From the NCBI GenBank assembly GCA_012026655.1, contig JAAILG010001139.1, positions 1 through 64,000 of the forward strand: 64,000 bases of DNA, given 5' to 3'. The stretch's first letter is position 1; every line of letters begins with the position of its first letter. Positions 22,341 to 48,937 of this stretch are shown one piece after another. Origin of the DNA: Hydrolagus affinis. Taxonomy: Eukaryota. The translations under genes and the position numbers were made by a program. The notes beneath the pieces are model-generated. The model was not told where the DNA came from and searched no databases. It was given only the letters and a program-made list of their open reading frames with translations.

Positions 22341-23984
22341 TTCCTACACCAGTTCTGAGGCAAAGGTGAGACTGCATTTGTCGGTTTTAGCCAGCGAGTA
22401 AGCTTTGGCATGGCTGGACAATTAAACCTTCTCCTCTGCATCCAAATGGAGTTCACTACAAGGTTGCTGTTTATATAAATAATAATCTTTGTATTTGATA
22501 TAGCGACTTTCACATCAGAAGGATGTCTCGAAGTGCTTCGCAATAAAGTGTTGTGACTATATTTTGCAGTTGAACAAAGGTAAACGAGTGAGAATGCAGT
22601 CATTCTGGTATCAAGGCAGACGTTTCTGAGTGTCAGTTAAGATTTACTAGACACTAGTTGTTCAAGTCAAACCATCACTATTGAGACCCTACTGGGTGCC
22701 TGGTTGGAACTGAATGATTTATTCCTGCTTGTTGGGAAGACTGGGACTTGATCCACTCTGAAAACAATGTTAAGACTTTATTGTTTAATTATGGAGATGT
22801 GCACAGCTTAAAGCTCAACCTTCATTAAAGTTAGAAAGCAAAATGCATTGAGGACAGGACAAGCCTTAAAAAGATAAGCAGCAGGAAATGATGATTTTTC
22901 TTTCTAAAAAAATCCTTTAAAAAAAGGAGTCAGAACCAAAATATTTGATTAGTTGCTTTCCCTCAAGCAGCATGAACTAAACACTCTTGAGATGGAAGAT
23001 GGAAACATTTATATAACAAAAGGCTGCTGAGTGCCAAGTGTAGATGGGAAGCATGGAATTTCACGTCAGGACGGCCTCCCAACATGAACGGTGCTCTAAC
23101 AAATGTAATTTTGTTGTTGTTGATGATGGAATTCTCAGTTTGGTTTGGATACTCTTAAGAATAGTGATGGGTTTCTGCACACATCAGACACACTCGTCTG
23201 ACCAAATATATCACCTTAGTGTTTAAAACATTTTGTTGCTTTTCAGACCAGAGTCCAGTGCACATTATGATTTTGTCTCCTTCCACATTTGCGTTGGACT
23301 TTCACATTTCCACATCCTTCACTATCCCTACAGTTGGGTAAGGTGGGAGCCAATAAGACTATTTCAGCACACAGAATGGAGAGCTATCTCTTCTCAGCTA
23401 TGCCATGTCTGCATAATAACTATCAGGACTGTAGAGCTTTTCTCTCATCTAGTATTTTATAAGTGCCAACATGCTTTTTTTTATTGCCAAAGGAGTTTCT
23501 GATCAAAATCAACTCAATCAGGTTAAAATCAAGCCTACCAATCACACGAGCTGTTGACAGGACAAACTGTGCCCTTATCTTGAGGATTTGTTAAGAGGGC
23601 AACAAGATGTACATGAATATTTTACAGTTATTTCATTTGGGAAGGAATTAGAATCTTTTTAGAGCCGAACAGACTGGAGGCAGGGAGTGAGGAGCAGCAA
23701 GAATGGATGCTTGGCAAAAGGAGAATAGGAAGATCGGGGAGAGGATGTGATGGTGGGAGGGGTGGGGTGGGTGATGGGTGAGAACACTGTTGAGCGAACA
23801 GCAAACAGGAACACCACTTAGAAATTGCAACATACGATTTAAATTGAGATTTTAGATGGGAGGAGTGAATAATTTTTAAAAGGATGTGAATACATACTGA
23901 CTGGTTAATATAGCAGAGCCACACTATTCAGAGCATTAGTGTTAAGTATCTCTTGTGATTCAGTGACAGAGCTCAATCAGATAC

Positions 23985-24056
23985 CTAATATTTGCAGTAT
24001 ATGCTGACTGAGACTGGTAGTTGAAAGAAGATGATGTCTTCTGCTGCCAGTTATAG
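23985..24056 (-). CDS. LDB3: Predicted LDB3 cassette exon, 72 nt (S-YNWQQKTSSSFNYQSQSAYTANI)
   Basis: ttttgtctccttttag|CTATAAC...AATATTAG|gtatct; phase 2-2, open. Confidence 0.7.
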
Positions 24057-26369
24057 CTAAAAGGAGACAAAATACATTGAACAACAAAGCAAGAATAGAC
24101 CCGCCACCCCACCTCTCTCTCCCATCACAATACAAGACTGGAGGGAGGTTTCTCCCTTGTGATGTTAAATGTCCACTCAATTTCTTTCATGCAGTATATT
24201 CAAACGTCAGAGAGCACTGCAGTAACTCACCCATTCACAGACCAAACCATTCCCGGCCAGGGGATTTTAAATGCAAATACCACCTTGTACAGCTCCCTCG
24301 GATTTCCGTCCATTCCAAATGTTATAACCAGCCAGATTTCAATAAGCGGTCAGTCAATCTGCACTGAAGTCAAGGAGTAATATTCTACTCGATTATGCTG
24401 TGTAATAACTTTTTTATATTTCAGTTTGAATTTTTTTTTAACATTTCCTATCCTTCCCCACCAATTTTCTCCTCATTTCATGAAGCTATTCACTTCTCCA
24501 GTCACTGGCCCAGTAGCAAATCAAGAGGGGAACATTTATTTAATCCCCTTCTTAACCAAAGGTACTCGAACACACTGTAGCATCCTTACTACTGCCTAAA
24601 ACCAAAGGGTTTTATTTGCTTTCCATGGCTCTAGATCTCCAGAAATGAACGTAGATGTCCCGATACCAGGAAGTTGTGCCTGTTTTGGGGTGAGCGTTTC
24701 TGATCAAAATGAACTCGATTAGGTTAAAATTAAGACTACAATACACTGTGAACAGGGTAAAAACAATGCAAAGTTGGATTAAAGGAGAAAGCAGTAAAGA
24801 TACTTACAGAAAACGTGGCGATTGAAAAGCAATGAAGCAGCGTTATTACCTTCTCAGATTGACAAGAAGAATACATATACTGTACATATTACCTTATCAA
24901 AGTTGATGAGACCCCATTACTGCACCTCGGACCCGTTGAGGACTTTCAACTCTTCAACTCCATTTATTTCAGCACTTTTGAAAATAATGTCTTAAACCAA
25001 GGAACGCATTCTTTGCACTTCCAGTGTATACAGAGAGGATAGCACACAGTCAGTAGGACTTGGCTCTGGAGCCGAATTTAAGTTCATTATGTCAGGTTAC
25101 CCTTTCAGTTCTCAGCATTGAAATCACACCTTGAATGAAAAGTGTAGAAAAGAACTGGACCTGGAATATTTCCTTCCTATTACTCTATGATCAATGCGAG
25201 CAAATAGACTCCAGACTCAGATCACAAACGGTTAGTCTGTTGAATTTCAGGTCTCAATGCTCCCTTTTCTACAAACACCTTCACTGGGGCCACAGTATAT
25301 GTTTGACATTTCACTTTTTCTATCCTCTATTCAGATAAGTGTTTGTTACGCACATTGGTAAGGACTACAGTGTTTAATCGATAGTTTGTGCACTCTCATC
25401 CACTGGGAACGGAGTGAAACTATCATCTGGTTTGTAGTTCAATCCATATCTCCAAATGTGAAAGACACCATTCAATACCCATTCCCAGAAAAGGGATCCT
25501 CAATATCTCTGTCCATGGATGATTTTGAACAAAAAAACCTTACTCTACGTCACAATGATGCAAAGCCCATTGGAGAAGAGACACTCATTCACTCTGTCTG
25601 CCTGAAATTTAGGATTGATATGATGTCCCACTACACTACCTAAAAGTGAGATAGATCATCAACTTGATCCTGTCGGACTGACTTGAAACTCAAACCAACG
25701 TTACCCTTTCAAAAATATCTGGCAAAAGCAAGCGACTTTGGTATACTTTGGTAAAAAAAAAGCACAAAATAAGGACGTTGTATAATAAACTACAATTAGA
25801 TTCGGCACAGATTACTATGAAAAAGTATTTGGAAAAACAATTAGTGGTACTGAGGATTAAGCAATTCGATTACGAGCATAAAAATGTTATGCTAACACAG
25901 AAAAATACAAAACCTTCCCAGCGTGGGAGATTACTGACTCGATGGTTTAGGGATTACATATGAAAATTAGGCACAGGAGTTATGGAATTGCTGTCACACT
26001 GTCCACATGGAGAGAGGATGGAGATATAAACCTTTCTAAAGTTGTGAATGTAGCACCCTGAAATAAATCTCCAAATAAAGAATTATTGAAATCTTCAAAT
26101 GAAACCCTGCATACCTAGCAATGAAGGATCTTAGAATGTGTTACGATTTACAGGTAAACTGTGTTGCAGATATATGGATTAATATTCAAAACCCTGACAG
26201 GAAGATTAGGCCATTGTAAAGTATTGTGTGGTACTGTGTAGTGACCCTCAAATCCTCCTGCCATATTTTACTATCGGGATTCCTTTCCCAAGCCTCAGCC
26301 TGTCTGTCCTGTCCCCTGTTTCAGGGCCCACTTTGGGGGTTGAATAGTACCTGTCAAAATTCACAATAC

Positions 26370-26474
26370 GTCAGAAGCCACTCCTGTTCAGCCCGTGTTC
26401 CGTACAGAGGACGGCACGGAGAGATGAGTGGATTAAACAAGCTGTGTGCAGTTGTGGTGCTCAGAACACTTGGA
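26370..26474 (-). CDS. Possible LDB3 cassette exon, 105 nt (S-PSVLSTTTAHSLFNPLISPCRPLYGTRAEQEWLL)
   Basis: ttctgactcccttcag|TCCAAG...CTTCTGAC|gtattg; phase 2-2 and open only with the weak donor; the better donor CAG|gtacta 19 nt further on includes a TGA. Confidence 0.4.
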
Positions 26475-27009
26475 CTGAAGGGAGTCAGAATTACACAAAG
26501 GAATTGCTAAGGAAAGGAGGGCTATGTACGCATTTTCTCTCCTATTTTTCATTCCCTTGGCTCCTTGTACCATCTACCTGTCTACCCAAGAGAATGGACC
26601 AAAGTTGCCTCAATACTTGGGGACAGGTGGAAGTAGTTCTTCAGTCATATTTGGAGGAATCTGACACTGGATCATTCAAGGATCTTTGGTTGCAGATTGA
26701 GCACTGAAAAGTAGCATGGAAGCTTTAGTAGCCACTTGTTGTTGAGAATGAGTAGCCGATACGTTCTGTATTTTCCTTTTAAATATGTACACAGGGTGAA
26801 TATAGCATTTTAAAAACAAGGGCATGAAGTTAGTCTACGGTGGCTTTTGAAAGTGGTCTTCAGTGCCCGGCATCATGGAGTATACATTTTGTATACTCTA
26901 TACTCTGCAGTATCATTCACAGCACATCCTTGAAAGATTGGCAACTCCTACTTCTAGAGAACATAGCAGACAATGGTACTGTATAGTTATAACAACCATC
27001 TAATTGTAA

Positions 27010-27420
27010 AATGGACAAGGAGGAGGCTGGACCCAGTAGAGCAGAGGCAGTGGGTAATGCTGTGAGGAGAGAAGAGGTTAGAGAAGTAGGGTGGGGGGTT
27101 CATGAGTAGAGGGATTCAAACACAAGAGTGAGGATCTTGAAGTCGACCTGCTCTGTGACAGGAAGCCAATGCAGTTTGGGAAGGATTGGGGAAATCGGGA
27201 AAAGTTTGGTGCAGATGAGAATGTGGACGGCGGAGTTTCGGATGAGCTGAATTCTGTGAATGGTGGAGGAGAATAGACCAACAAGGAGGATATTAGAGTA
27301 GTCCAGCTGAGGCTTGGACCAAAGTTTTGGCAGGTTTTGGGGTGAGCTATTGACAGAGATGGGCAATGTGGCAGAGGTGGACGAATGCAGTACTGGTGAG
27401 GGACCAAATGTGGGGGAGGA
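27010..27420 (-). mobile_element. L2 ORF2 C-terminal fragment
   Basis: LDYSNILLVGL...IQLIRNSAVHIL...ISPILPKLHWLPVTEQVDFKILTLVF. Confidence 0.88.
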
Positions 27421-27784
27421 AGGATAACTGGGGAAGGATAATAATCTTTGCATTTAGTACAGTGCCTTATCAAGCTATGAAGATGTCTCAAAGCGCTTCA
27501 TGGGATTTACTGTGAAACTGTGTGACTGTGTATTTGCAGGCAAAAAAGGACTCATGAGGGTGGGTCAACCTAAATTTCTCTTCCACATGTCCCATGGTTG
27601 GGTAAGGAGGATGAGCTAGCCATATAATGCTCCCTTTAGTGGGAAATTGGCTCTTGATATATATATATGTATATATCTGTAAGTTTAATTAAATATAGGA
27701 TCCCTCCCACCAAATATGTCCTCATTGCACAGACTTGAAATATATCTGCAACACCTCAGTTCACATACATGTGGTTTTACTGTG

Positions 27785-28100
27785 TAATAATAATAATAAT
27801 AATCCTTGCATTTGATGCAGCATTTTTCACGTCTTCTAGACGTCTCAAAGTGCTTCACAGAATATACTGTCAAGCGAATTGTCTGTATATTTGTGGCAAA
27901 GTGCGGCAGCCAATTATGGACAGCAGTGTCCCACAAATAGTCATGGATTGAAATGACCAATTGATTACTGTTTTTCGAGGAATTATTATCAGGCGTGTAG
28001 AGTAAGAAAACTCTCCACCCAAGGTTTCACCCGCCTGGAATTGAACACAGGTCTCTCGCTTGCAAGGTGAGTGCTCTAACCACTGAGCTACAGGACTCCA
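27785..28100 (-). mobile_element. tRNA-head/L2-tail SINE, full length (3' fragments also at about 21310-21430 plus, and 28520-28690, 28885-28990, 37355-37460, 60530-60725 minus)
   Basis: GGAGTCCTGTAGCTCAGTGGTTAGAGCAC head to (TTA)n tail. Confidence 0.92.
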
Positions 28101-28253
28101 CAATATATATGCCACATATCGTACATGTTTTTAAAATAGTGATATATTTCTAGGGTTGCCTGTTCATTTAGAAATTCAGGTTTATCCGTATGTGTTCTGC
28201 ACATGTGGGTATGTGTGGCTGGCAGGGTTAGTTTTTAAATCGAACTGCGGTAC

Positions 28254-28382
28254 CTCACGTTTGATTTCCCAAGAGGAACATAACTAGCTCTAGTTCGTTT
28301 GGGTAAGGATGGTGAGTTGATGATGGGAGTGATACGAATCGCCTCCAAGGCAGTCGTTGGTTTGGGTAGGCTCACACCGAAT
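28254..28382 (-). CDS. LDB3: Predicted LDB3 cassette exon, 129 nt (R-FGVSLPKPTTALEAIRITPIINSPSLPKRTRASYVPLGKSNV)
   Basis: ttctttgtggggtag|ATTCGG...AACGTGAG|gtaccg; phase 2-2, 42 open codons; ACTAAC about 22 nt downstream. Confidence 0.72.
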
Positions 28383-29399
28383 CTACCCCACAAAGAATTA
28401 AAAACAAACATAGTAAAAACAATCAAATTATTTCTTTCGCACCTCGCCTGACTGGCGAGTGAGTGAGGATCCAGATAACACAGTTAAAACCCACATTCCT
28501 TCATGGTAAATCTAATAAGAATAATTATGATAATCCTGACATTTTATACAGCACCTTACCACATCATTGAGTAATTGTAAAGCGCTTCACAGAATATATT
28601 GTAAAGTGAATTGACGGTATATTTTGTGGGTTTAGTGGCAGCCAATTGTGCATAGCAGTGTCCCCACAAACAGTCATGGATTGAGTGACCATTTCTTTAA
28701 ATCGATATCAACCAAAGAAAAGCAAACAATACTTTCAACCGGAAAAGTCAGTTATAATAGTACCAAAAGCTGCTCAACACAAGACAAGTGTAAAGGTCTC
28801 CCCTCACTTTTGTTCTGGTGATGGGCTAAGCTAAAGACTCTTGTGTTCTTGCCCTAACAGCTCAGGTGAGTCATTTGCATATAATATTAATAATCCTTGC
28901 ATTTGACAGAGCGCCTTATCACATCATTCAGACATCTCAAAGTGCTTCACAGAATATACGGTAAAGTGAATTGACTGTATATTTTGTGGTTGAAATGCCC
29001 GAAATAAAACCTAGAAATGGTTGCATTAAATACTCTTCCAAACAGGTTTTAATTTTGCCTCCAAAATTAAAAAGAGTGAAAAGGAAAATGCTTTTTAAAC
29101 CCAAACTAAATGCCTTTAGTGTAAAAAGCACATCACATCCTTTGGAGTGTTTTAAATGCATAATGCGATCACAGGATTAGCGGTTTAAATTACACCCAAA
29201 CAGCAATTATCTCCTTTCGTCGCTTCCACTCAAGATAGTTCCCTTTCGAAGTTTGCAAGCAAAGCTTTTTCTCCCTAGGCTAACAACTGTTCCTCTAGTA
29301 TTGCTTTTAAACATATAATGCACTCTAGTTAATGTCAGCCTTGTAATTTACAAGCATTCCTGACAACACTTATGTGATGACGTGCTTGCGTCGATTTAC

Positions 29400-29447
29400 C
29401 TTGGCCTCCGTCCTTGCAACATAGAGGAGAAAAGCAATATGGAAACA
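29400..29447 (-). CDS. Possible LDB3 cassette exon, 48 nt (S-VSILLFSSMLQGRRP)
   Basis: atttccaccttag|TGTTTCC...GGCCAAG|gtaaat; phase 2-2 and open, but its 5' half is pyrimidine-rich and could itself be an intron tract. Confidence 0.35.
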
Positions 29448-30686
29448 CTAAGGTGGAAATTAATTTTTGGGGGAAGAGAGGTGAAGAGGGGAGAGAGTAT
29501 GTACTTTTAATTTTGCCTTAGGTGCCAACCCTAACTCTTTACAGTCAGGTACAGACACTCAAGGCAGGATACCAAAGATAAACATTATAGATAGGACAAT
29601 AATAATAATAATTCATACATGTAATATAGCAGCTCATCATGTCAGTCAATCAAATTGGGCAATCAAAAAATAATTTAAAAAATATTGTAAACATCCTTAC
29701 ATGATCTAGAGGGGAAGGTAAATGGCGCAATAAGCCTTCAGGAAGGAGAAACACCAACGTAGGATAACATTGGTATTAATCCTAAAGTGAAAGTCATCAC
29801 ACAAGGGAGTGAGCAGTTAAACATGCACCTCACAGTCAACTGATGTTGGTTGGAAGGTGTAGCTCACCAAGCGAAATTAAGGTGAGGAAAATGTAAGCTT
29901 CTTTTGATAGTGTTGAGCAATTCAGGAGAATATGTGCTTTGGTTTGAGAACGAGTGAACCCACAAGGATGATGTTTGGTTTGTGTTAGTCACTTTGGGGA
30001 GAGTGGAGGGGAAGACACAAGGGAGATAGTTGCTTTCACCTTTCCTACATTAGGGAGGAGAAAACTAGTCAGACATCTCTCAGACTGGATTTACATTTTG
30101 ATGGGAGAGCACAAAGGAACCAAACATTTTGCACTGCAAATTTAGGTCATTAACTCAAGAGTGTTTCAGGCATCGAGCCATTTCAGTATTGTTAAAAAGA
30201 ATTAACATGTACTTTAACAGCAAAATATTTAGGAGTGCCAGCAAGCCACTCAGCAAAATAAGGATCTGTGCAGTAACTTACAACTCAGACCAGCCAAGCT
30301 GTCTAGCCAATGGCAAGGAGCTTGCGTTTTATGATAGGTTTTACAGGAATCAACTGCAGGCGAAGTTGAAATTTTTTGATCAACTGCCCATTGGCATGTT
30401 GATTCCCCACCTGGACCCAAGGAAACTTGGAAAGTTCGTGAAATCGATCCTAGACATTGTGAGATTACTAGGAATTTTCCAGGGCATGGGCAAAGGACGG
30501 CTTCAAACCAGGAAACTCCTGTACTCTCCTGGGAGTGGGAGAGAGTCGTGCTTAGGTGGTCTGCAACCCACCAAAGTAGTTTCTTCTCCAGACTTTCTAT
30601 GTTTTAAGTGCCTGAACAGCCAGCAGTGCGATGCAAACTAGATCTACACAGACAGATGTAGAGAAGATGGAGAGAGATGGATGTAC

Positions 30687-30797
30687 CTAGTCTGGGCAGA
30701 AATAGCAGCAGAGACAGTGGCAACAGCCAGGGATGTGTTCCTGGAGCCAGCAAGCATTCCAGGCTGCAAGGGCGGAGCAATGGAAGGTGTAGCCACT
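30687..30797 (-). CDS. LDB3: Predicted LDB3 cassette exon, 111 nt (R-VATPSIAPPLQPGMLAGSRNTSLAVATVSAAISAQT)
   Basis: ctctgtgttctcttcag|AGTGGC...CAGACTAG|gtacat; phase 2-2, open, A/S/T/P-rich like the rest of the linker. Confidence 0.75.
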   Translation of the reverse strand, partial: SGYTFHCSALAAWNACWLQEHIPGCCHCLCCYFCPD

Positions 30798-31454
30798 CTG
30801 AAGAGAACACAGAGCACAGAGAGAGAAGTAAAGCATCAACACACATTGACAAACAGCTGAACACAGTAGCAGACATCTGCCAGACTTGATTATTACTGAA
30901 ACAAACATTGAATAGTGGGCATGGGTTGGGTTAAAGAGTGCTCTGATGAGCTGTGAAGCGTTATAAAACCCCCACCATGCACATGGTTCTGGGCACCCAC
31001 CCACCCCTTCATTGGTTTGCGACTTGTAACCCATTTACAAGTGCCACGGCACATGATAGAGTGGCCAGAAGAGTACAGATGTACGCAGATGTGTGTTCAC
31101 TTTCCATGTTAATTCCTGGAACAGTCAGATTATGGCATTCTACAGTTTCAGAAACTATTCACAGTGCTCTCTCATTTTGGCAACTATTTTCTCTGCTTTT
31201 TCAGCCAGTCTGACAGAACCTAAATGCTTTGCAAGAAGCATAGCAGTGAAATAGAAGGGAGGAGCAGTGCATTATAAAGGTTTCAAGGCAGCTGCTGTGA
31301 GGGCAAGACAGGAAAACACAAAGCTGTTGATAGGCAGTATCTAAATAACATAATTGTTTAACTTGGGGGGTTTGCATATAGAGGTGTATTGGAGAGTACA
31401 ACCATTGCAGTCATTCATTTAAATAGTAAGGCTAATAATATAATAGCAACCTTT

Positions 31455-33550
31455 CATAAGAACATAAGAATTAGGAGCAGGAGTAGGCCATTCTGTCCCT
31501 CAAGCCTGCCCCGCCATTTGATAAGATCATGGCTGATCTTCTAACCCAATTCTAATTACCTGCCCTATCCCCATATCCCCTAATCCCTCTATTTTTTTAA
31601 AAAAAATCTATCAGTCTCTGCCTTGAAAATGTTCAAGGACTGAGCATCTACAACCTTCTGGAGTAGTGAATTCCATAAATGAAGAAATGTTTCCTCAACT
31701 CTGTTCTAAAAGGCTGACCCTTAATTTTAAGATTATGACCTCTGGTTATGGATTCTCCCACCAGGGGAAACAGTCCCTCACTGTCGACTTTATCCAGCCC
31801 TTTTAGAATGTTATATGTTTCAATAAGATCTCCCCTAATTCTTCTGTACTCTAGAGAATAGAGCCCTAGTTTATTCAACCTATCCTCATAGGTCAGTCCC
31901 CTCATCCCAGGAACTAATCTAGTGAATCTACGCTGCACCCCCTCTAAGGCAAGTATGTCCTTTATTAAATAAGGAGACCAAAACTGCACACAATACTCTA
32001 GGTGCGGTCTCACCAAGGCCCCATACAGTTGCTGCAAGACTTCCCTACTCTTGTACTCTAAACCTTTTGCAATGAACGCTAACATGCCATTTGCCTTCTT
32101 AGTTGCTTGCTGCACCTGCAAACTAACTTATTGAGACTGGTGTACAAGGACACCCGAATCCCTTTGTACACTAATTCTACCTAACCTTTCCCCGTCTAGA
32201 AAATAATTTGTTTTTTTATTTTTGCTACCTAGGTGAATAATTTCACACTTCCCCACATTAAATTCCATCTACCTCCTACTTGCCCAGTCTTCTAGCCTAT
32301 CTATATCCCGTTGCAATCTTTTTGCATCATCCTCACAGCTGACTCTCCTACCTAGTTTAGTGTCATCCGCGAATTTAGACACATTACATTCAATGTCCTC
32401 GTCTAGATCATTGATGTAAATAGCTGAGGCCCAAGCACTGATCCTTGTGGCATTCCACTAGTTACATCCTGCCAATTCGAGAATAACCCGTTTATCCCTA
32501 CTCTCTGTTTTCTACCTGTTAGCCACTCTTCTATCCATGCTAAATATGTTCCCATTAATCCCGTGGGCCTTGACTTTGTGCAATAGCCTTTTGTGTGGCA
32601 CTTTATCAAATGCCTTCTTAAAATCTAAATATACCACATCTACTGTTTCCCCCCTATCCAACCTGCTAGATACATCCTCAAAAAACTCTAAAAGATTAGT
32701 TAAGCATGACTTCCCTTTTGTAAAGCCATGCTGACTCTGCCTAATCTTGTTATGGTCATCCTGGTATCCCATAACGATGTCTTTAATTAAGGACTCAAGA
32801 ATTTTCCCTACCACTGATGTCAGACTAAATGGTCTACAGTTCCCCATGTTTTCTCTCCCACCCTTCGTAAATAGTGGAGTTATGTTTGCAATCTTCCAAT
32901 CAAAGGGAACTTTTCCAGTATCCAGAGAATTTTGGAAGATTATAGACAAGCCATCCACTATCTCAGTGGCCACCTCCTTTAAAACTCTAGGATGTAGGCC
33001 ATCAGGTCCAGGGGATTTATTGGTTTTAAGACCTGACAATTTACCTAAAACCATTTCTTTACTAATATTAATCTCCCTAAATTGGTTGCTAACATTGTCT
33101 TCTTGGTTCCCCTCTATTCTTGGTAGGTTTTTACTGTCTTCTATGGTGAAGACAGTAGCAAAGTACTTGTTTAATGACTCTGCCATGTCTTTGTCCCCTA
33201 TTATAATTCCCCCTGTCTCTGCCGGTAATGGACCCACATGCACCCTTGATAGCATTTTCCTCTTTATATATTTGTAGAAACTCTTGCAGTCTGTCTTTAT
33301 GTTCCTGGCTAGTTTGCCCTCATATTCTATTTTCTCCCTCTAGATCAATTTTTGGGTTCTTCTTTGTTGATCCCTAAAGCTCTCCCAATCCTTGGGTTTA
33401 CTGCTCACCTTAGCTGTTTATAGGTTTCTTCTTTTAACTTTATACTTTCCCTCACTGCTCTAGTTAGCCTCGGTTGGACCACCTTTCCCATGGCATTCTT
33501 ATTCCTCAAAGCAATACGTGCTCATTGGGAATTTTGCTCTATCTCCTTGA
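31455..33550 (-). mobile_element. CR1 LINE, 5'-truncated, about 2.1 kb, RT domain with few frameshifts
   Basis: KSPGPDGLHPRVLKE, QHGFTKGKSCLTNLLEFF, YLDFKKAFDKVPH, PQGSVLGP, SKFADDTKL, LVRPHLEYCVQFWSP; 3' (TTCTTATG)n terminus at 31455. Confidence 0.97.
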
Positions 33551-35201
33551 TATCAATCAGATCCTTGATCCAATTTCATTTGATGTAGCGCCTATGTTGT
33601 CGGGATGGATTTTTAACTTAAAGAAATCAGGTAAACATTAGGTTTGGTGGAAACACTCCACTCTACATGGAGTTTTTAGATGCTGCTTTTAACATTGCTT
33701 GTATTATTATTATTATTATTATTGGGTTTGAGTGATTGATATAAGGCTGAACATCTGCCTGAATGACTAGTTCTTTTCAATTAGAGAGATCCCACAAACC
33801 CTGCCGCCACAATAAACATTAATTTCAACTTATCTTAGTCATGCGCAGTCAATGTTAGGATAGTTTATGTACTCTCTTGGCTAGGGCTTAAATAGTCACA
33901 GGAGATCTAATCACTGTGAATGCTGTGATATTTTCCCTATTGTGTAAATGTCAGTGGTCTTTTGTTGTTATTGTCTACGCCACCCAATATTTCTTATAAA
34001 TTATAAATATTGCAGGTGGTTACTGATGTTAATTGGGATACCATAATGGAAATTGAATCATTTCTATTGATCAGATGGTCTCTGTTAAGTACAACTAACT
34101 GAGCAGCAGAGATTTAGATACATCAACAAAGTTTTCTTTGAAAACTGAAAACATAACTGCAACATTAGTACATTTCCCAAAGTCTGACTCAAGGCAGGTC
34201 CATGAGTTCAGTAAAAGCTACTTATGTACCATGAAAAGCATACCAAACCTCCAGTCTAGCTAATTGGCAAGCAAGAGCGTAACCTAAATGAATAGCACAA
34301 GACAATATCACTATAGAAGCATTGAGGGTAAAAAAGGATTAGGATGTTCGATTTGATAGAACGGATGGGATAGCAGCAAGGAGGCAGAAGGTTCCACAAA
34401 AGTTTCCACTCTCTGAATCCTGAGTCCTCCAAGCTCAAAGGATTTTCACTAACACCTCGTTGAAATGAGAAAAGAATTCATTTCTACAGGGAATTTCTGT
34501 TCAAAGAAACTTTTAAAAAAGACAAAATCAAATAAATCAGCGAATAAACACTCAGCAGATCCTGAAATCACTGAAAGTAAATGTTGATTGGATACGCTAA
34601 AATCTGAAGGGACAACATACAACAATAAAGGAGCAGAATTGAATTAAGTCTTAAGGAATGTAATGTTTTTGATAAACAGGTTTGTTAAATCATGTCTTAG
34701 AAATTATAGGCATTTAGGCACAAGATCATTATATCAGGACATATTACAGGTGATTCATTGAGGGTTAGTAAACTTGTGATTTGGCAGTGTGGAACTTACA
34801 CAAACTCATACCCCTATACAATTATAAACTCACCACCCTTTGCAGAGGTGTGTGAATGTCTGCACTCCAGTCACATGTTACTGGTGACACCTTGCATATT
34901 GTATTACAAAACCTGGTGAGCTGTTCAACCAACACCCGAATCCAAACACATCATAAACACACAAACAGAATTAATGGAGTTCTTTCTCCAAATTCAGAAT
35001 GGCCTGAAATTGAGAACACAAAAGTATGCACATCATGCCCAATGTACATGATTAGACATTTCTGACACATGCAACTCTAGAATGAGAAAACAGCATGGAT
35101 TCCCTCCCTCCGAAGGTCTAACATCCCCTTGAAGCAAACACTGTCTAACCTGAATATCTGCGAATGTACACGAGAAATCCTCCTTGTAGAAAATGCAATA
35201 C

Positions 35202-35420
35202 CTTACTGGGGCAGGCGACACCGGAGCAGGAAACACCGGAGCAGCGGTCACTGGAAAGACAGCCACTGGAGAGGCAGAAGGCTCTTGACTGACGACAGCA
35301 GGTAGCGGCGTGGGCATCGTGTTAGTGGCGGCAGCAGGCGGACTGGCCGAAGCGACAGACATAGCGACATTGGCGGGGCTGGCCGCTGGCGAAGCTGACT
35401 GAGCATGCTCGATAGGAGTA
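35202..35420 (-). CDS. LDB3: LDB3 exon 10 (STPIEHA Ala/Pro-rich linker; the developmentally regulated exon called exon 11 in mouse and myotonic dystrophy literature)
   Basis: taatttggattag|TACTCCTATCGAGCATGCT...CCAGTAAG|gtattg; 219 nt, phase 2-2; STPIEHAQSASPAASPANVAMSVASASPPAAATNTMPTPLPAVVSQEPSASPVAVFPVTAAPVFPAPVSPAPV. Confidence 0.92.
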
Positions 35421-38400
35421 CTAATCCAAATTACAGAAAAAGAAGAGGAAAAAACAATTCGTTAAAGAGAAATTTTTTTGGTCGCGTCTTGATAACATTT
35501 TCCAGTGAGCTTGGAACAGATGCTTGGCAATTCTACAACAGTAGAATTCTAAACATCCATTATCTTTGGCAACCAAAGCAACTGTGTAGGGGCTGGGCAT
35601 TAAGCATCCAATGGTCAAAGAAAGGAGCCTGAAGAAAGGGCATCTTCACAACTGCAGTGAAGAGAGGGAAGAAATTTACTGTGGACCGCAATTGACTCTT
35701 CAAAGGGGGAATCGGATATACTTTGAAAAGAAAAGAATTGCAAGACTATGGGTGAAGAACGGGAGAGAGTGACTAATTGGATAGCTCCTTCAAAGGGTTG
35801 GTACAGTTATGGTGGGCTGAATGGCCTCTTTCTGTGCTGTAAGATTCTATGAAGAGACGGATATCAGTGACAGGAATCTTATCCCAAGTGGAACAAGAGT
35901 CCTCAACCGTACTTGTTTTTTTTGACAGAGGAAATAATGCTGTTGGGACAAACCAAACCTGCAGGTGATCATTCTCCCCCAGCACCAGCTTTGGTCCACA
36001 GATGCTTCAGATACCTCGATTGATGGGTCAATATTTTAGCAAGTTGAACAAAGTTACACAACTAAGCTACAATGCAGTGTGCCGTGCGGGCACCGAGAGT
36101 TAGTAGCAGTTATTTATTTACGTAAAATCTTATCAAAGGTTAATGTGGAAATTTGGAGCCTTGTTTTTTTTTCATTTAAGAAAAAAAGTGATTCTTTTTC
36201 AGAGTTCAAATTCCAGATGGCCGGTAAGACTGTATCTCTACTGTATTTAACAAGCAGCTTGATGCTTTGATGGGAAGACGGTTAGGTGAGTAGCCTGGAA
36301 GAGGAGCTCACAGTGCTCCTTCTTTCATATTTCTTACAATGCTGTCCTAGCCATTGCAAGTTTAATTAATCATTTTCCTGCAGCTGAGAAAGTTTGAATG
36401 TGGAGGTAATGTGCTCCATTTCACTGGTAGCCAAACTCTTAATCTTTTCCATCTGTTGCTTGGTATTTTTGACTGACCCAGTGAATCAGTTTGATACAAA
36501 TGGAAAAAAAAACTGCATTGTATTTTAGATTTTATTGATCCAAGATTTTTTACAACATTTCCCCCCCTTGTTTTTTTTTTGGTGGGTGGGGGAAGAGGGT
36601 GCAAGGAATGGTTGGATGGTGTGAAGGTTGTTTCATTTCAAATGGGTCACTGGAAAAATCTGGAAAGCGAGTGACATCTGACTTGGAATGTTTTCCCGAT
36701 GTGAAAGGCACAATATAAATGCAAATTTCGTCTTGCACCAAAATTATGAAAGGCGTCAATTTCACTCTCACTGTTCAGACAATTGAGACAAATGTGATAG
36801 AGACTCTGCAGGTTAGTCAGCTGTGCTGGCATCTTCTTACTATATAACACAATCCAGACTTATTTAATTAAAGGAACTACAGTATTTCCAAGAAGGCAAC
36901 AACACTCCCTCTCTCTCCCTCGATGCCGTTTTACATAAAGATCTGTATCTCTACCGCCCACTACCTACCACTATTATTATATTTACCATGATTTAAATTG
37001 TAGTTACTCGGTTCCCAGTATTTTGATGAGAAGATGGTAGGATGCGTGTTCTGGAAGGTTGAAATAAAATGAGCCATGCTTGGGTGATTGACAGTGCGGT
37101 GGGAGGATTGACAGTGAATGCTGGTGTGGAACAAGCAATTGAGAAATGGAATTACCAATCTAGTGAGTCATGGGGCAGGAGTGGGTGATAGGCACACTAT
37201 GGTGGTGGTGGGAGGGGAGGAGGCAAAGAGTTAAAGAGGGAGGGTGTATGGTTGGAAGTAGAGGGTGTATGGTATGGAGCATAGGAATGGGTTAGGGCAA
37301 GAAGTTCAGAGGGAAAATAAAGTATAAGGAGACTTGAGGGGTGGGTCAGTATGGACATAATAATCCTTGCATTTGATACAGCGACTTATCACGTCTTCGA
37401 GACATCTCAAAGTGCTTCACCAATATTCTGTAAAGCGTAGTGACTGGATTTTGTGTGTGGAACGACAGGCAAAAGGACATATCTTGGAGAAAAACAGCTA
37501 AACTGGGAACAAGACGAGAGCAGCTTAGCAATTGTGACAATCACCAAATGGGATCCTACCCATTCAACTGCCCCTGTCCCTTGTCAAGCTTTATACCATT
37601 GTACAGTATTATACTTTTCCTCGTTCCCCCGCAGTTTACTCCTCTTTAGATATCTGTTGTATTCTCTTTTGAAAACTAAGACGGATTCTGCCTCAACCAC
37701 TGCTCCCAGCAGGGTCTTCCTAACAAAATGTATGAAAAAAAATCTGTGAATTTCCTCATTTGCTACCTACCTTACAATCATAATTTGTCTCACTTTTACA
37801 TATGTAATTTATGCAATGCCTATCAAAACATATCCTTAGAAACATATAAAGATAATGATAATAATAAAAATGACATTATAGCACCTTATTTTATAACTAC
37901 ATCAAAACATCTCAAAGCACTTCACAGGACTCTAGATTATAACAACTCTTGGCAAATTGTAGGTATGAAACAGAATAAGAACCTGTCAACGTGCCTGTTC
38001 CTTCCCATATACAATATGCACAGTCACCATCATGGGATGCTATGATTATTTCTTTGGTCAGCCGGTTGTCTTGACACCCGCAGAAACTAATCACCATCAC
38101 CTCTTAAGCATGGTAACGGGTTTCTGTATGAATCAAGATAACCGGCTGGCCCTCAAAAAATCATTGATGAACCCAAGTTAGTTACCCTTGGAAGGAAGAA
38201 TAACCATATAAGAGCTACGTGTCACCAGATAAAACAGTAATATTTCCCCAGAGACAAATCAATAGAAAAATACGCATTCATCGAAAGCCCATTTAATACT
38301 AGAATTTTCAAGCTGAATTTTGATCTTAAGTAGCATGAGTTTACATTAAACAAGTACAGATTGACTGAATATTTCTAATTCAGGCTCTGTGTCTGATTCT

Positions 38401-38632
38401 TGACCTTATGATTCCTGATTTAGTGATCGGATATTGCTGGCTTCAACTTCAGGATACCTGGAGTCAATACAATGCTGCAGGATAACATAAATCATGGTCA
38501 ACATTTGAACCAGCTACTTACAAGTGAGAATCCAGTTCCTTGAGCTAGCACACTCTTTGCCATTGATTAGATTTTAAACCTTCACTGCAGGCACATGCGC
38601 AACAGGTAAACATGTATGAAGGGCAAAAGTAC

Positions 38633-38716
38633 CAAATCTCAGGGCGCCACGTTCTTGCTGTAGGGAATCCGGTCAACACGAACGAGGGAGCATTGAACAG
38701 TGGGTTCTCATTCTCA
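38633..38716 (-). CDS. LDB3: Predicted LDB3 cassette exon, 84 nt (S-ENENPLFNAPSFVLTGFPTARTWRPEI)
   Basis: ttctacttgtcagtccag|TGAGAAT...GAGATTTG|gtactt; phase 2-2, open, CpG-retaining relative to flanks; donor is modest. Confidence 0.55.
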
Positions 38717-39585
38717 CTGGACTGACAAGTAGAATAGCAATTCTCACTGCCAATATTCCACTGAGTACACACCTAGTATTACAACTATGTAAATGCAGTT
38801 TAAGAGGTGCTGTATCTGGTTTGTATTTGCAAACACCAAACCTCCCAGGACTTCTCTCAAGCATTCAGAGAGGCCTCAGAGCTTCTCGGTGAGTCAGGTC
38901 AGTGAATGGATGTTATAAGTCCTGGAATACAGTGATTATGTAGCCAAAGTTACAATGGGATACTCATTACCATCATAGTACTTTTTTCTGATTGACCGAT
39001 TTCCAAGATAAGCACTTACAGAACTTGTATCCAGCTCAATGCACAATTGTTTAAATGTTAATTTACCATCACATCAATAGTTATCCATTGTTTTTTTTAC
39101 CCTCATTGTTCACTACATTGCATTAATTGCGACATCCTAGAAACGCGTAGCTCCTATTTATTAAGATGAGAATCCTTGTGGGTTGAAGCAAAGTAGGCTG
39201 CTCCAAAATAATGTCTAGGAGCTAGGCCAAGAATAGTGTCCAGCGAAAAGCCCTAGAGGAAAATACCCTCCAGCCAGCTTAATGACTGCTATGTGGAAGA
39301 GATAGGAATGAAAGGAAAGGGAGGCAGTTAGACCCCAGCATAGAGTAACATTTTCACCCTAGAAAATGTTATTTCAGAGATTGACTTAAAATATTTTAAA
39401 AGGTAGAACATACATAATGGTTAGTATCAACAGTGAAAGATGCAAATCCAACTGTATGTCCCCGATGTAGCCCTACAGTACAAACAGCCACTTCTGCACT
39501 CAAACTCACAGCCTCACAATGATACGTGTGAAGAGATACGTGTGAAGTGAAGCAGAGGAGGAGAAGCAGAAAGAGATGGTGTTAC

Positions 39586-39624
39586 CTGGGCTCGGAGGTT
39601 TCCGTGCTGTGCTTCGTCAGGTTA
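39586..39624 (-). CDS. LDB3: Predicted LDB3 cassette exon, 39 nt (S-NLTKHSTETSEP)
   Basis: ctcctctcctcactccag|TAACCTG...GAGCCCAG|gtaaca; phase 2-2, open frame, strong pyrimidine tract and donor. Confidence 0.7.
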
Positions 39625-42600
39625 CTGGAGTGAGGAGAGGAGCGTGCAGAGAAGCAGTAGTGAGAGACAGAGGTACATTTAAAGGAAAATGACACTGAAA
39701 AGCAAAGTGAAGAACCACAATAGGAAAAATGCAAATGCATAAGCTAAACTCGTACGAATTGAATACCCACTTCCTGGACAATAAATCCTCTTTAAAAACA
39801 TGGGTTACTACACCAGATCATTGCCAGGAAATCCAAACCTGGTCAATTGGGAGTCGGATAAAGAAAAATCACCAAGAAAGAAAGACCAGGCAGACACTCT
39901 CCATAGGGAAACTCCAGGAGGTCTCCCGAGAGTAGAATTATTCATCTTGTGAGAATATCAATAGAGCAGGATTAGGCAGAAGCTTGGGAACATGTCTCTG
40001 CGTCCTATCAGCTATAGGTACCCCAATGCACTGACTGAGTGAGTCCAGGTTTCTGGGGTATTATTTGTCCATTAGTTTTTTCAATACCTTCACTGTGCCT
40101 TGTTAAACCAAGGATCAACTTTGTTCCTGTATTCCAAAAAGCACAGGTCTGGTTCATTTTGGTCTTCTCCTTAATGAACGTCATTTTGGGGCAGATTAGG
40201 TGATGATGCAGCAGCAGGTATGGGAGCGAGGGCACTAGTTTTGTTGGTGGGTTAGTGAGTGTGTATGTGTATGCATGCATGTGTAACTGTTCAAAATCAC
40301 AGCATTTGTTCTTCATCCAGGTTGAATAAATGTGACTGTGTTTGGGAGATACATACAAGGAAAAGATACACAGAGGTTAAAACTGTTCAAAACAAAAATG
40401 ACAAACATGGCAAAATAAAAGTGGTGAAGAGTGAGGATGTTGAATGAAATACAATTCAGTGCAGTATAAATACAGCATTAGTCCACACACAAAGAAACAC
40501 ACTCACCATAAACACATTGTGGTTTTTTTTTATTTCTAATAAAATGACAATCATTTGGGGGAACGACCAAGGCAGGCACCGGGGGAGTCAGTGGCTCTTC
40601 AAGCTTCGAGCAGCAGCAGGCTCACTACCTACCAAGCCTTCCCTCCCACCATTGCTAGGGCAAACTGTGTGCTTTGATGTGGGCAACTGACCGTGAATTT
40701 GTGGTGTGTTAGGGTTGAGAAGATGCATTGAAGTGAGGATTAAAAGGATCAATTCTCAGTAAGTTACCGAGAAATGGGCCTTGGAAATGGAATATCTAAG
40801 GCTGTTGGAAGAATTCAAGTGCTTGTGATAATGTCAAGAAGACATCTAATATCGAATCTGGAAGCATGATTTATACCTTTCATTTAATAGTAATTTTTTT
40901 TTAAAGATGAGGATGTTTTGGAGAAATTCTGTATCACAAGGTAAACAACAGAGGCTTTATTAACCAAGGGCTGGAGCATCAATAATGAAAATTATTCACA
41001 ATGAACAATTACCATTTTCTACCAACAGCTTTAAACAAACACAAACAGAATGGAGGACAAGACAGGATGACTTTGCACATATGGACAATACGAACATAGA
41101 TATATATATATATTTAAAAACTTATTTATAAACACATACAGCAATCTCAGACACATGCAATGTTTAATGTTCCGATGGTATTGAGGACATTTTGCTTGCT
41201 TACTTTGATTGACCACACAGAGAAACAGGTTGAATTGATGGGGTAAGAGGTAACACAGGGAACCAACTAGTCAATTGTAAATCCAGATCAATCAATTAAC
41301 TGTAAATCTGAATTTGTACTCAAGAAGTTGGCATCAGGATTTGGTTTGGTGAAGCTGTATCATTAGTAATTATTCCATCAAACGAGATCATAAGATCACA
41401 TGGTTATAGGAACCAGAATAAGAGTTAAATGGTTAGATTAGTTTGGGTTTGAAACATCCCATCGAAAACAGATATCAAGAATAGAGATAATAAAAACCAG
41501 AGACTTACAGATTCTTAACATTCAAACAAAAGAAACTGAGCAAAAAGGATCTCTTAAGGATGAATAGAACTTTGGTTCTATTCATTCTTGTCACAGTACA
41601 TTGTCATGTTCTAGTGACTATTTAGATTTGAGTTGGTGCACTAACCTCATGAACACTAAAACTATTCCACAGTTTGACAGGGATTATTTGGTGCATCAGT
41701 ACTTTATCTATACTGGCTCCCAGCTCGGGGGGCACTGTGGTTGTGATGCCGCTGGTACAGACTCGGATATTTAGGTGCATTTCCCAAATATTTTGCAATA
41801 CCGCTTGATGATTGTTAATTCACAAAGATTAAACTGGATTACGTTGGGAGAATTCAAGCAGTCAGTTTTCTAATTAGCAATGCAGGATCTTTTCCCCCCC
41901 CAAATGGGCCTATATTGAAAATAAATATGTTCATGGTTTCCACCACCCTAAACATTAACGTCCATATTTGACCTCACCCACAGATGTGTTTTAACAAGAT
42001 TCTATACCATTTTCTGTTGTTTCCAATTTCAACATCTTCATTTCCTAAGAGGAGCCACAGCCCACCATGCAAGGAAAATGGATAGTCTGGACTGTACAAG
42101 CACTATCATTGATGTTTCAATGATCAAAGGTGTAATAGCAGAGGTTGAAACAGTGCATTTTGGATTCAGCATCTTGCAATGGGATGCTACTTTATGGCGT
42201 GGACTAGCTGGGAAAGTACAAACATTTGTTCCCTCATCTGTAGCTGTTGGGTCCCCAACTCTAGGGTCTTGCCAACCTGCACCTAATAGTTTCCAAAATT
42301 AGCTAAGCACGATGCATCCTTCCAGGGGGAAAGTACACATACCATTCCAACAATCTATCTCTGGAAGTTCCATGTGTAGGTGGGATGCATGGTATTCTCA
42401 TCTTGCTTTAAACCTGTCACCCTACTTTTAAGCATAGTGATGAGTTTTCACATTTGTCAGGCACCCGGCTAACCAAAGATAAAGGAGCTGTGGATATCTC
42501 AATACTAGATTTCAAAGAGATCGTCTCTCTATTGAAGGGCAGGTCTTGAAAACTATGGCTGAGACAGTATGGTCACCAAAAGAGATACTGCATGAGCTGC

Positions 42601-44507
42601 AATGTTATTCAGTAAATGGAGAAGTGGCAGGATATAAAGAGACAACAGCTACTGAAAGGAAAGGTGAGACGGTTAAAACTACATAGCCTATTTCATGCTG
42701 TTTTTAGTCCACAACTGTTTTAGAGGCAGGTAAAGCCATATCTCTCTTTCTCAGCCACTGCGGTTATAGGCAAGGCCCTTTCACGGGAGGGTGTCCAGTC
42801 AAGGCCTGCAGCTTAATCTGCATTTGTGTCTGCTTGCAGTATAACATAGGGAAATAACTGGGGGCTATTGGGTTTGGTGGGGTGGGGGAGGAGGAAGAGA
42901 TTTAGTGCAGACAGAAGCAGCGGATTGGAAGATGAAAATCAGGGACCATCAAAAGAAATGTTAGGTACAGAATGAATCAACATGCACAAAAGTCAAAGCA
43001 CAGGCAACACAGAGTAAAATGCCAGAACCAGTCCAGCCTCACCACAAGCAAAATACCCTATTGAGAGGGTGGACTTTAAGTAAGCAGAAAGCCTAATGTA
43101 GTACAAGCTGTCATAGACCAATGATGAGAAAGAGCAAAAATTGTGTGGTCTGCGTTAAATGACTAACAGTAAAACTAATGATAATGCAATACATTAAAAA
43201 AACTCTTTCTTGTTCAGCTCACTCATTGTAATTTTTGCTAGTGATGATCTTGCCCTTCATTACATATATGCCCAAATCTATCACATACAATTAAAATTAA
43301 CGCAACTGAATGGCGCTCCATTCAACTCCATACTGAATTACATTTTATTTCCCATGGGATATTAAATTGTTGATATTGGCAAGACTGCCACTGTTTTCCT
43401 TCCCCAGGCAAAAAGGAATAAACTGAATTTCTTGGGATTTATGCCCAAATTCTCAGACAATTCGTATCTTGTGTTAGGTGAATGATGTGTTTGTGTTTAT
43501 TACATGAAGCAAATGTAACTTTCTTCACACAAATCGGTGCCCCCGATTATCATTACAGATACGCTCCCTCTATCCTGCGCAAATAACATTCTCAATCCTA
43601 TTCTGAGAAAAGTTGTCTTTAACTACAAGATTTCCATGTCCCATACCACTAACTCCTATACAATCCTATGGGAAACTTAGGGCCAATGAATTGAATTATT
43701 ATGGACATTTCACACTGTAAAGTGCTTAGATCTTGCCTTCTAAATGTTTGCAATTGAATACAAGATTTATTTTACTATTACAATTTTGATTTACATTTTT
43801 CATTGCTGGATTAATGAAATGCTCAATTTTTAAAGAGCTAATGGCCTTAACATTGTTTTTTCTTACATTTTTAAAGACAGTAGATTAAAATTAGACCAAT
43901 GATGCAAAAATAGATTAGAATTCATTCTCATAAATAGTTCTCGAGTATTGTAGAACAGGAACAACAGTTTCCTCCTGTCTCTACATTCCTTTAAGAAGAC
44001 AAAGGGTGGGTATCTCACCACAGAGCATATTTAAGCAATGAGCTGATTTGAGAGTTGCACAATAGACCTACACAGTTTCCAAAGCAGCTGCCTTTTCGAT
44101 GTCAATCGGATTGCACATGGTTAGAAGTACACTCATGAATCGAAAGACAGAATCAACAAAGATTGAAGCACAGACTTAGATGGATGAAGACACTGCTACT
44201 ACACAGAATAGCCTATTTTCCCCAATTTCAAACTTTCTGGTCAACATTATTTGGGGCAACATGCACTCGGTGATTGTAAAGCATGCAGATCTATTTGTAT
44301 AAAAATTGCATGAAGACAAAATTCTTCCCACCAAGTGCTTCCACTCATGCCAGCCAGGCCCTCGATTTGTCCAATGACAGCACCTTGACCTGGTAACAAT
44401 AACATGCTCATAGTCATGGGTTCTTTTACCACATGCTCTGTGACAATAAAACTCATGGCTTTTGACCAGCACCAGTTTGGGGGTAAAACAAGTTTCTCAG
44501 GCAATGG

Positions 44508-44892
44508 TAATAATAATAATAATCCTTGCATTTGATATAATGCTTTATCACATATTCGAGATGTCTCAAAGCGCCTTGCAGAATATATTATAAAATGAAT
44601 TGACTTTTATATTTTGTGAGGCGAAACACAGCAGCCAATCGTACACAGCAGTGTCCCACCAATAGTCATGGATTGATTGACCAAATCATTTATTTTTTTG
44701 AAGGGATTATTACCCCTAGAAAATCGATCTGCCAATCGACTAACAACTGGGTTCCTACTTACTGCTAGGAAAACAGAGGTGCGTGGAGAAACTTGCCTAA
44801 GATTTTTGCTGGGAATCAAACCCGGGTTCTCTCGCTTGCAAGTCAAGAGTAAAAACCAGAGGACTACAGGATAGGGTACAGCTTCAGGACTC
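44508..44892 (-). mobile_element. tRNA-derived SINE, long variant
   Basis: Reverse-complement match to 15300-15655, including the central segment. Confidence 0.88.
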
Positions 44893-47109: not shown

Positions 47110-47490
47110 CAGATTGCCCCAAGATGTCCCAATGGGTAAAATGCACTGCACACTGTTGCACATTACTCAGCTATGAGAGACTTTATCTGTGTGTCAGTCC
47201 CCAGTCTGTGCTGAGAGGCAGTACAAAAAGCTACAATTGGCCCCAGCATTATTTGGCTGGGGTGGCAAGAAAGCAAAAAAAAATCAGCTACGGTTCTACT
47301 TATCACTATGCAATAAGCTCCACGGCAAGTGCTTGTTTGTGGCACAGATAAAGTGGGATCAAGCATTGTCTCGATGACCCAAATGGCTGAATAGCCCAAA
47401 GACACTCACTACCTAGGCTCACACATGAAAAATAGTGACTTGTGGCAAGGTATCAGAGCATTGCTGGCACCTGCGGAACCATATCACAAC
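47110..47490 (+). mobile_element. Ancient SINE-like relic (tentatively AmnSINE2-like); related pieces at about 16540-16740 plus and 19830-19990 minus
   Basis: Shared CCCCAGTCTGTGCTGAG...GCTACAATTGGCC...AAAATCAGC motif; the family name is from recall only. Confidence 0.4.
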
Positions 47491-48937
47491 ATGAAATTGG
47501 CATTTTGGGAGGAGGGGAGGGAGAAGGGAGTGGATTGGGATAGAAAGCAAAAATGGAAGAGTGAGAAAGTAATGTCGAAATCCATCCCATACAGATTTAC
47601 ATCTTACAGATTTACAAATACCAAACTGTTTTTAAAGACAAACTTTCTTTGCTTGAATCTCTTCATCCCATCCTGATTAATTTCCAGTTTAGCTAGCATT
47701 AAATACCCCACCCATCTCCATTAAATGGTTCATAAAATAGTCTTATGCATTATCATTATTTTTCCTCCTCTTCTGAAGGAATGCTTGTGCTATTATTAAT
47801 AAATCATTGCAATTGATACAGCACCTTTCATGTCAGGAGAATGTCTCACAATGCTTGACAGGATTCACTGTAGAGTGAAGTGAATGTATTTTGTAGATAA
47901 ATTATTAAGGAATCACTCTTTGCTCTTTGCTACTGGAAGCAATTTTATTATAGCATCCTGATGTTGTGTAGTCTGTTATCGACTAATTAATTTTCATCTC
48001 ACCTAAAAATCTTAGCACTTACCCTGGAATCTGATCCACACTAGGCGAAATCCACGTTAAAGTACCACAGTTCTCAGGAAGCTAGGTTGTGTTTTGGAAA
48101 TCCCGATCCAGTTAAAATAATTTGTTCAACCAGCAGAGTGTTCCTGAGAATTAGACTCCAATTTTTGCCTGTGGTTTAATTATTTGAAAAATGGAGACTG
48201 AGGATGGATAAGGCACAGAAAAGGACAGGGGAGGGATCGAAAAGGCATCTTCCAGGAGTTGCCAAAACATGATCTGGTGATTACTGCATGCAAGGGCTGG
48301 TGATTGTGGATTATTAAAGCCTTGTTGGTGACGGATGTGTGTGATTGTTTTAAGTGAGATCCGCAATGTCCCAAATCTGCAGGATTTGTAAGAATCTGCA
48401 AAGCAGCCACCTTGGACTTTGGTAAGATTTCAGCTTTTTAACTGCAGCGCCTTGGGAAGTCCTCCCGACGTGAAAGGCGCTTTATAAGTTTAAATTGTTG
48501 TTGTTGTTGAGATGCTGTTTATTGCCACTGAGCTTCACTTCATTAAATCTTCCCCATTCTATTCACAATCAGAAGTAGGAGGAATAGGCTATCCAATATG
48601 TCAATAGTCTTTGTTAAATCCATCTCCCTACTTTTTCTGCACATCCCTCTATACATTTAACTTCCAAGCATCTACCTATCTATCTTCCTTTAAATATCCT
48701 AATCTATTCTGCAGACAGTGGCCCGCTGACTACAACAACTGGATGTATTGCTGTGTTCAAGTTAAACTGTGTTCTGTGAGCATTCCCCATAGTCTGACAG
48801 CAAACCACTTAGTTTCAACTTGCACCTTTGCTTGTACAAAGAAAAACTTTTTTTTAATCCAGTATTTTACAATTCTTTCTAAATGAACTCAAAGATGTAG
48901 AAGCTGACTCCTTATACAGAAATAAACCTTTTAGCAT

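Follow-up and report, generated by a model that had tools for sequence, protein, structure and literature searches.

The LDB3 gene of the chimaera Hydrolagus affinis very likely carries three exons besides exon 10 in the region encoding the linker between the ZM motif and the LIM domains, and these exons, here called cassettes C, D and E, are likely to be skippable units that switch short conserved motifs into or out of the linker. The DNA analysed comprises the first 64,000 nucleotides (nt) of contig JAAILG010001139.1 (hereafter the window), in which comparison with named LDB3 proteins places the 3′ part of the gene on the minus strand. A preliminary description of the window had proposed nine segments between exon 8 and exon 11, five stronger and four weaker, as an array of interchangeable spacer modules belonging to this lineage. 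Exon numbers follow human usage, as in that description, and the cassette labels A to E were coined in this analysis.

Cassettes C, D and E and the chance background

The array and its anchors read as follows in the direction of transcription.

49910-49946, minus strand: exon 8, 37 nt, anchoring the array upstream and ending in phase 2 (protein comparison)
35202-35420, minus strand: exon 10, 219 nt, symmetric, the cassette retained by mammals (protein comparison)
30687-30797, minus strand: cassette C, 111 nt (37 codons), with a predicted helix as its conserved C-terminal core (homology)
28254-28382, minus strand: cassette D, 129 nt (43 codons), with a net charge of +5 and a basic stretch after its conserved ALEA..ITP core (homology)
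23985-24056, minus strand: cassette E, 72 nt, 24 codons, Ser/Gln-rich (homology)
21442-21593, minus strand: exon 11, 152 nt, starting in phase 2, downstream anchor (protein comparison)

The nine candidate peptides were compared by alignment with the linkers of 216 long-isoform LDB3 proteins, 184 of which are distinct, and 60 shuffles per peptide gave the null scores. Three of the nine scored above all 60 shuffles, namely C (158 vs. a shuffle maximum of 56), D (195 vs. 55) and E (123 vs. 45). C, D and E are identical to the LDB3 of Callorhinchus milii at 33/36, 40/42 and 23/23 residues, respectively, and to that of the basking shark at 30/36, 31/42 and 14/23. The C. milii model follows the order exon 10-C-D-E-exon 11 with boundaries identical to those in the window, and the same cassettes, order and matching boundaries are found in C. 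milii LDB3 (XP_042192761.1, XP_007897513.1) and in shark and ray LDB3 (Cetorhinus XP_078386754-62, Stegostoma XP_059496233-40). Cassette C exceeded its shuffle maximum in 20 genus labels (among them sturgeon, lungfish, frogs, a caecilian, turtle and alligator); D did so in 15, including gar, catfish, piranha and the caecilian, and E in 14 genera, all of them cartilaginous fish. Bony-vertebrate counterparts of E were called by position and motif alone. In an alignment of 22 genera for each cassette, the ALEA..ITP core of D and its basic tail are kept, and so is the core of C near its end (the C alignment comprising bony vertebrates only, and the link to sharks coming from other comparisons). 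Pfam and PDB searches with the three cassettes matched nothing, and an ESM Atlas search with D gave a single match at 0.79, which is chance level.

Compared with sharks and rays, the window and C. milii have the start of cassette E (24051-24056) two codons earlier, which suggests that the acceptor has shifted in one lineage or the other.

The claim that several symmetric phase-2 cassettes exist besides exon 10 is thus borne out, as C, D and E match annotated exons. The numbers put forward with it shrink. Instead of five to nine extra modules, three are supported and one more is plausible (39586-39624, described below). The five stronger segments do sum to 435 nt, and three of them correspond to annotated exons, while 38633-38716 has no homolog; the supported extra linker length is 104 amino acids (aa) rather than 145 aa. 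Conservation in other chondrichthyans, as judged by peptide comparison, applies to C, D and E, and the other six segments did not rise above their shuffles.

All nine segments are indeed preceded by AG, followed by GT, divisible by three in length and open in phase 2, on the minus strand inside LDB3. These properties do not set them apart, because 1215 minus-strand segments with lengths of 18-150 nt pass the same test in the interval from the exon 9 stop to exon 11; on its plus strand, used as a control, 1377 segments pass. The original description itself cautioned that short candidates can arise by chance. By an approximate splice-site score built on approximate frequencies, the nine ranked among the 1215 as follows: 39586 at 1, 30687 (C) at 4, 23985 (E) at 6, 48023 at 7, 28254 (D) at 43, 29400 at 71, 38633 at 92, 41204 at 125 and 26370 at 149. 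Since the genuine exon 10 scored -4.7, under all nine candidates, only a high score is informative and no candidate is rejected by a low one. Self-comparison of the window found no repeat containing any of the nine, and counts of splicing-factor motifs near them gave no clear enrichment.

Distribution among jawed vertebrates

Cassettes were called by custom regular expressions over 246 long-isoform proteins, and absence from a lineage here means absence from the retrieved models, not from genomes. Genera with a call were distributed as follows.

Holocephalan: C 1/1, D 1/1
Sharks: C 4/8, D 5/8
Rays: C 0/8, D 3/8
Non-teleost ray-finned fish: C 1/4, D 1/4
Teleosts: C 3/12, D 4/12
Lobe-finned fish: C 1/2, D 0/2
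Amphibians: C 12/15, D 8/15
Reptiles: C 4/11, D 0/11
Bird: C 1/1, D 0/1
Mammal: C 0/1, D 0/1

The same calls placed cassettes A and B in amphibians, reptiles and the duck. Counting exon 10, amphibians reach six cassettes (one caecilian model holds all six) and turtles and the duck five; the sole mammalian protein retrieved, a lemur isoform, has exon 10 alone. The LDB3 of amphibians, reptiles and the bird (A, B, exon 10, C, D, E) resembles the chimaera gene in its frame-preserving inserts between exon 8 and exon 11, its many combinations and its C and D cores. It differs in cassette B, an element of ~70 aa that has no match in the window (a profile searched against 3886 six-frame pieces gave a best E of 0.78, on the wrong strand), and in cassette D, which was called in none of 11 reptile genera and not in the duck. 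Mammalian LDB3/ZASP/Cypher likewise has a symmetric linker cassette with regulated inclusion, according to passages of PMC9822979 and PMC13521563, but one cassette is reported there vs. four to six in the other lineages; mouse long reads described in part of PMC9822979 include or skip that single linker exon (mouse exon 11, equivalent to exon 10). A search of a representative library with the caecilian linker returned seven matches, five related to LDB3 and two unrelated low-complexity sequences, and named no mammal.

Because C and D are common to sharks, bony fish and amphibians (C also to reptiles and the duck) and tetrapods hold further cassettes, the array appears to be ancestral and mammals the reduced case, contrary to the proposal of an array peculiar to this lineage. 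The simplest reading of these sequences would be an ancestral array with later losses. We infer that the exon 10-C-D-E set dates to the common ancestor of jawed vertebrates, and that tetrapods possess two further cassettes, A and B, before exon 10; D seems to have been lost in reptiles and birds, and all cassettes except exon 10 in mammals.

Both skipped and included forms are annotated in the gene models of relatives. For instance, the models of the basking shark and the zebra shark show five states each, i.e., exon 10 alone or followed by E, by D and E, by C and E, or by C, D and E. Neither C nor D ever occurs without E in complete cartilaginous-fish models (those containing exon 8 and free of exon 9), which speaks against freely interchangeable modules, though two frog genera and lungfish have C but no E. 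In several models from shark, ray and chimaera (P0003-P0006, P0012, P0017, P0021, P0025, P0141), terminal exon 9 is joined to exon 10 or the gene is split. They carry intron-like filler, look like annotation errors and were counted separately in the combinations.

Public gene models already contain cassettes C, D and E, and the splicing of disordered linkers in Zasp proteins is a published theme. What the comparison adds is that the multi-cassette linker looks ancestral, that mammals look reduced and that two cassettes hold conserved motifs without a Pfam family. A paper on zebrafish cypher may, reportedly, already show some of these exons. Outside subscription papers and supplements, a literature search found no description of these cassettes across vertebrates, and the portions of PMC1781342 and PMC10770608 consulted contain nothing addressing these exons. 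Splicing of the LDB3 linker is tied to myopathy and myotonic dystrophy, for which zebrafish, frog and chick serve as models, and the isoform inventories of these animals would differ from that of human.

Probable motif switching in the linker and its alternatives

Every cassette starts and ends in phase 2, so that the three LIM domains stay in frame whichever subset is spliced between exons 8 and 11, and exon 10 with C, D and E allows 16 possible lengths, from 0 to 177 aa. Muscle-type or stage-specific splicing would select the motifs carried by the long isoform, the selectable motifs being a predicted helix in C and a hydrophobic-plus-basic motif in D. The choice of motif may alter partner binding or residence at the Z-disc, and the accompanying change in linker length would be a side effect of that choice. 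Motif switching fits better than a pure spacer, since the cores of C and D are conserved from chimaera to frogs and a spacer needs no fixed sequence. As to the spacer role proposed originally, length does change with inclusion, and spacing may have an effect; the conserved cores are unneeded for pure length tuning. The motifs of C and D are short and cheap targets for binding assays.

The linkers of the Zasp family, described as little understood in part of PMC9751615, can influence binding and Z-disc stability. Passages of PMC13521563 report that inclusion of human LDB3 exon 10 abolishes actin binding and that the spliced disordered linker of fly Zasp52 stabilises Z-discs, and part of PMC7564762 reports weaker PKC binding by mis-spliced LDB3. 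The fly element, exon 15e of Drosophila Zasp52, is comparable as an alternatively spliced Zasp-family linker affecting Z-disc stability, but it is a single very long exon between LIM1 and LIM2 and is not sequence-homologous to vertebrate linkers (passages of PMC13521563).

Four contig sets, from four of eight listed runs, were aligned to 21400-41399, a stretch outside which exon 8 and 48023-48040 lie, and no run among them was recorded as RNA. In three RNA-guessed runs of a relative, a single contig per run covered exon 11. Run X1 was uncovered in the bins of exon 10, C, 39586 and 26370, which is evidence neither way, and its depth in the bin of E was 14.3 vs. 15.1 expected if a contig of depth 140 included E; as that bin also contains a 44-nt repeat, this agreement is given no weight.

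Several points weigh against ancestral, motif-switching cassettes. The homology of E to bony-vertebrate sequences failed the shuffle test, and the regular expressions missed some cases (e.g., of cassette B). The mammalian absence depends on one lemur isoform and the mouse passages of PMC9822979, with no genome search. The isoforms of relatives are database gene models whose read support was not seen, and short reads do not phase combinations. Contig alignments on 21400-41399 showed no exon junctions for this species or a relative, the joint and loose-end tables being filled by repeats. Partner binding by the C or D motifs is a prediction only. Finally, deletion of a single short motif from fly Zasp52 failed to reproduce what happens when the entire linker is lost, a result in the cited part of PMC13521563 that favours bulk properties.

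This last result would suit the view that the lineage has five to nine extra, freely interchangeable modules setting the distance from PDZ/ZM to LIM, as it places whole-linker above motif function, and so would the symmetry and openness of all nine segments and the 16 lengths that exon 10, C, D and E can yield. We nevertheless regard that view as improbable, given that six of the nine segments have no homolog among the 216 long isoforms, that the supported cassettes are common to jawed vertebrates, that conserved cores persist and that combinations look restricted in cartilaginous fish. Slightly less credible again is the idea that C, D and E are real yet functionally minor, being low-inclusion or annotation-propagated exons with no regulated role. 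The lack of junctions in the contig alignments, the splice-score rank of D (only 43 of 1215) and the absence of C and D from the models of whole lineages are compatible with it; it sits poorly with the core residues and exon order kept from chimaera to frogs (C, D) and to the duck (C), and with cassette E, which is identical throughout to C. milii while exon 10 matches at 62/72 and exon 11 at 43/50 residues.

A more specific function for C is doubtful, though less so than either of these two views, namely that its helix is titin Z-repeat-like and binds EF3-4 of alpha-actinin, in which case splicing would add or remove an extra anchor. The modelled helix occupies residues 18-35 within the 19-residue run, free of Pro and Gly, in which C ends, with a predicted local distance difference test score (pLDDT) of ~80, and the run has a putative likeness to titin Z-repeats. 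Hydrophobic positions 1, 4 and 8 of the 8-residue core hold A/V, V/I and I/L in 12/12 listed variants. Passages of PMC4259493 and 10.1101/2020.09.25.310029 describe binding of EF3-4 to the 1-4-5-8 helices of titin, myotilin and palladin, and a neck of actinin that tolerates small residues at positions 1 and 5. Both systems would involve short Z-disc helices, those of titin Z-repeats and of myotilin and palladin being differentially spliced (PMC4259493, in part). Nevertheless, position 5 of the C core is polar (Ser or Thr in 11/12 variants), none of 11 C peptides gave a Pfam match, and a C profile searched against PDB retrieved no titin or actinin-ligand chain but three chance-level matches (E 0.24-0.38); the binding is predicted only. 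Short Ala-rich peptides are, moreover, often modelled as helices, and the fold of C was predicted without a control. A full-length AlphaFold model had a pLDDT of 35 even in PDZ and LIM, and is hence uninformative on linker disorder. We hold equally tentative the combined scenario of an ancestral jawed-vertebrate switchboard, with four to six cassettes and mammals down to one, in which C acts as an undescribed Z-repeat-like anchor for alpha-actinin EF3-4 from chimaeras to birds.

Remaining candidates, flanking exons and intron contents

The six segments other than C, D and E are listed below.

39586-39624, minus strand: 39 nt, 13 codons, possibly the counterpart of cassette A (splice score; weak likeness to A)
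38633-38716, minus strand: 84 nt, unsupported
48023-48040, minus strand: 18 nt, located past the exon 9 stop with poly(A)-signal hexamers on either side, unsupported
41204-41266, minus strand: 63 nt, likely chance
29400-29447, minus strand: 48 nt, likely chance
26370-26474, minus strand: 105 nt, likely chance

We lean slightly towards accepting 39586-39624 as a real fourth cassette, and call it plausible. Its splice score is the best of the 1215 and is reached by none of the 1377 plus-strand controls, and its pyrimidine fraction is 0.77, a value of 0.75 being reached by 12 of 1674 AGs. Cassette A, with 12 residues, follows exon 8 directly in tetrapod models, and two carpet sharks have a 13-residue insert before exon 10; as none of the long zebra shark models retrieved lacks this insert, it may instead extend exon 10. 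In an end-anchored (C-terminal) comparison with 14 A peptides, a test that was chosen after the data were seen and in which the score was low, 39586 ranked first among 138 segments of similar size, and 6 of 321 controls reached its score. Its penultimate Glu is shared by 10/14 A peptides (background 5.5%). Local alignment to the long-isoform linkers was at chance level (30/60 shuffles reached the score), and the retrieved C. milii models, two of which span the linker, contain no similar exon.

The other five are likely chance AG/GT pairs. We think it improbable that 38633-38716 is a real cassette. A database search turned up no candidate with its frame, which is weak evidence by that method, 41/60 shuffles reached its score, the tetrapod cassette B profile did not match it, and it has a competing AG 3 nt upstream and a pyrimidine fraction of 0.51. 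For 48023-48040, which offers five testable residues, 7/60 shuffles reached the score; the corresponding counts were 54/60 for 41204-41266, 60/60 for 29400-29447 and 41/60 for 26370-26474. The segment 41204-41266 sits, in addition, inside a contig piece that runs unbroken over 40899-41397 in two RNA-guessed runs of the relative.

These contigs, of 1370 and 1418 nt, lie in the intron between exon 9 and exon 10, on the minus strand. One of them extends to 40524, close to an AATAAA (40534) that leads into an A-stretch. The contigs at 40.5-42 kb, which may be DNA or unspliced RNA, suggest that this sequence is untranslated or part of a terminal exon and not a cassette of 63 nt. The stretch from 40524 to 41397 and beyond could be a long 3′ untranslated region belonging to the short isoform, a further terminal exon with its start near 42280, or a product of internal priming. 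An 86-codon open frame at 42038-42298 had no Pfam match.

The assignment of the gene to LDB3, a member of the Enigma subfamily, is consistent with a ZM-motif exon, a terminal exon of the short isoform and three C-terminal LIM domains, encoded as follows.

59982-60185, minus strand: ZM exon, 93-97% identity to named LDB3 of sharks, rays and C. milii, PF15936
49160-49256, minus strand: coding part of exon 9, terminal exon of the short LIM-less isoform, best tblastn identity 97%
17261-13053, minus strand: LIM exons, matched by 88-89 of 120 proteins with best identities of 90-100%

The matching C. milii protein has three LIM stretches. Exon 12 is 95% identical to that of C. milii vs. 65-72% to those of sharks and rays. 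No match to the PDZ exon was found within the window, its expected position being past the right end. A symmetric phase-2 microexon of 21 nt follows the ZM exon (58219-58239, minus strand); it was matched in 8/120 proteins (best identity 100%) and is present or absent between paired C. milii isoforms. About 250 nt upstream of the ZM exon, at ~60430-60480 on the minus strand, lies an intronic, degenerate copy of ~45 nt of that exon with an in-frame stop.

The intron between exon 10 and C contains, at ~31400-33400 on the minus strand, a reverse-transcriptase fragment (PF00078, E 7.7e-13) that is likely the remnant of a long interspersed nuclear element; depth over this region was very high in all aligned runs. 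Short interspersed repeats occur at 27438-28998, 37357-37464, 44504-44858 and other positions, with up to 14 overlapping self-matches, and are found on both sides of D.

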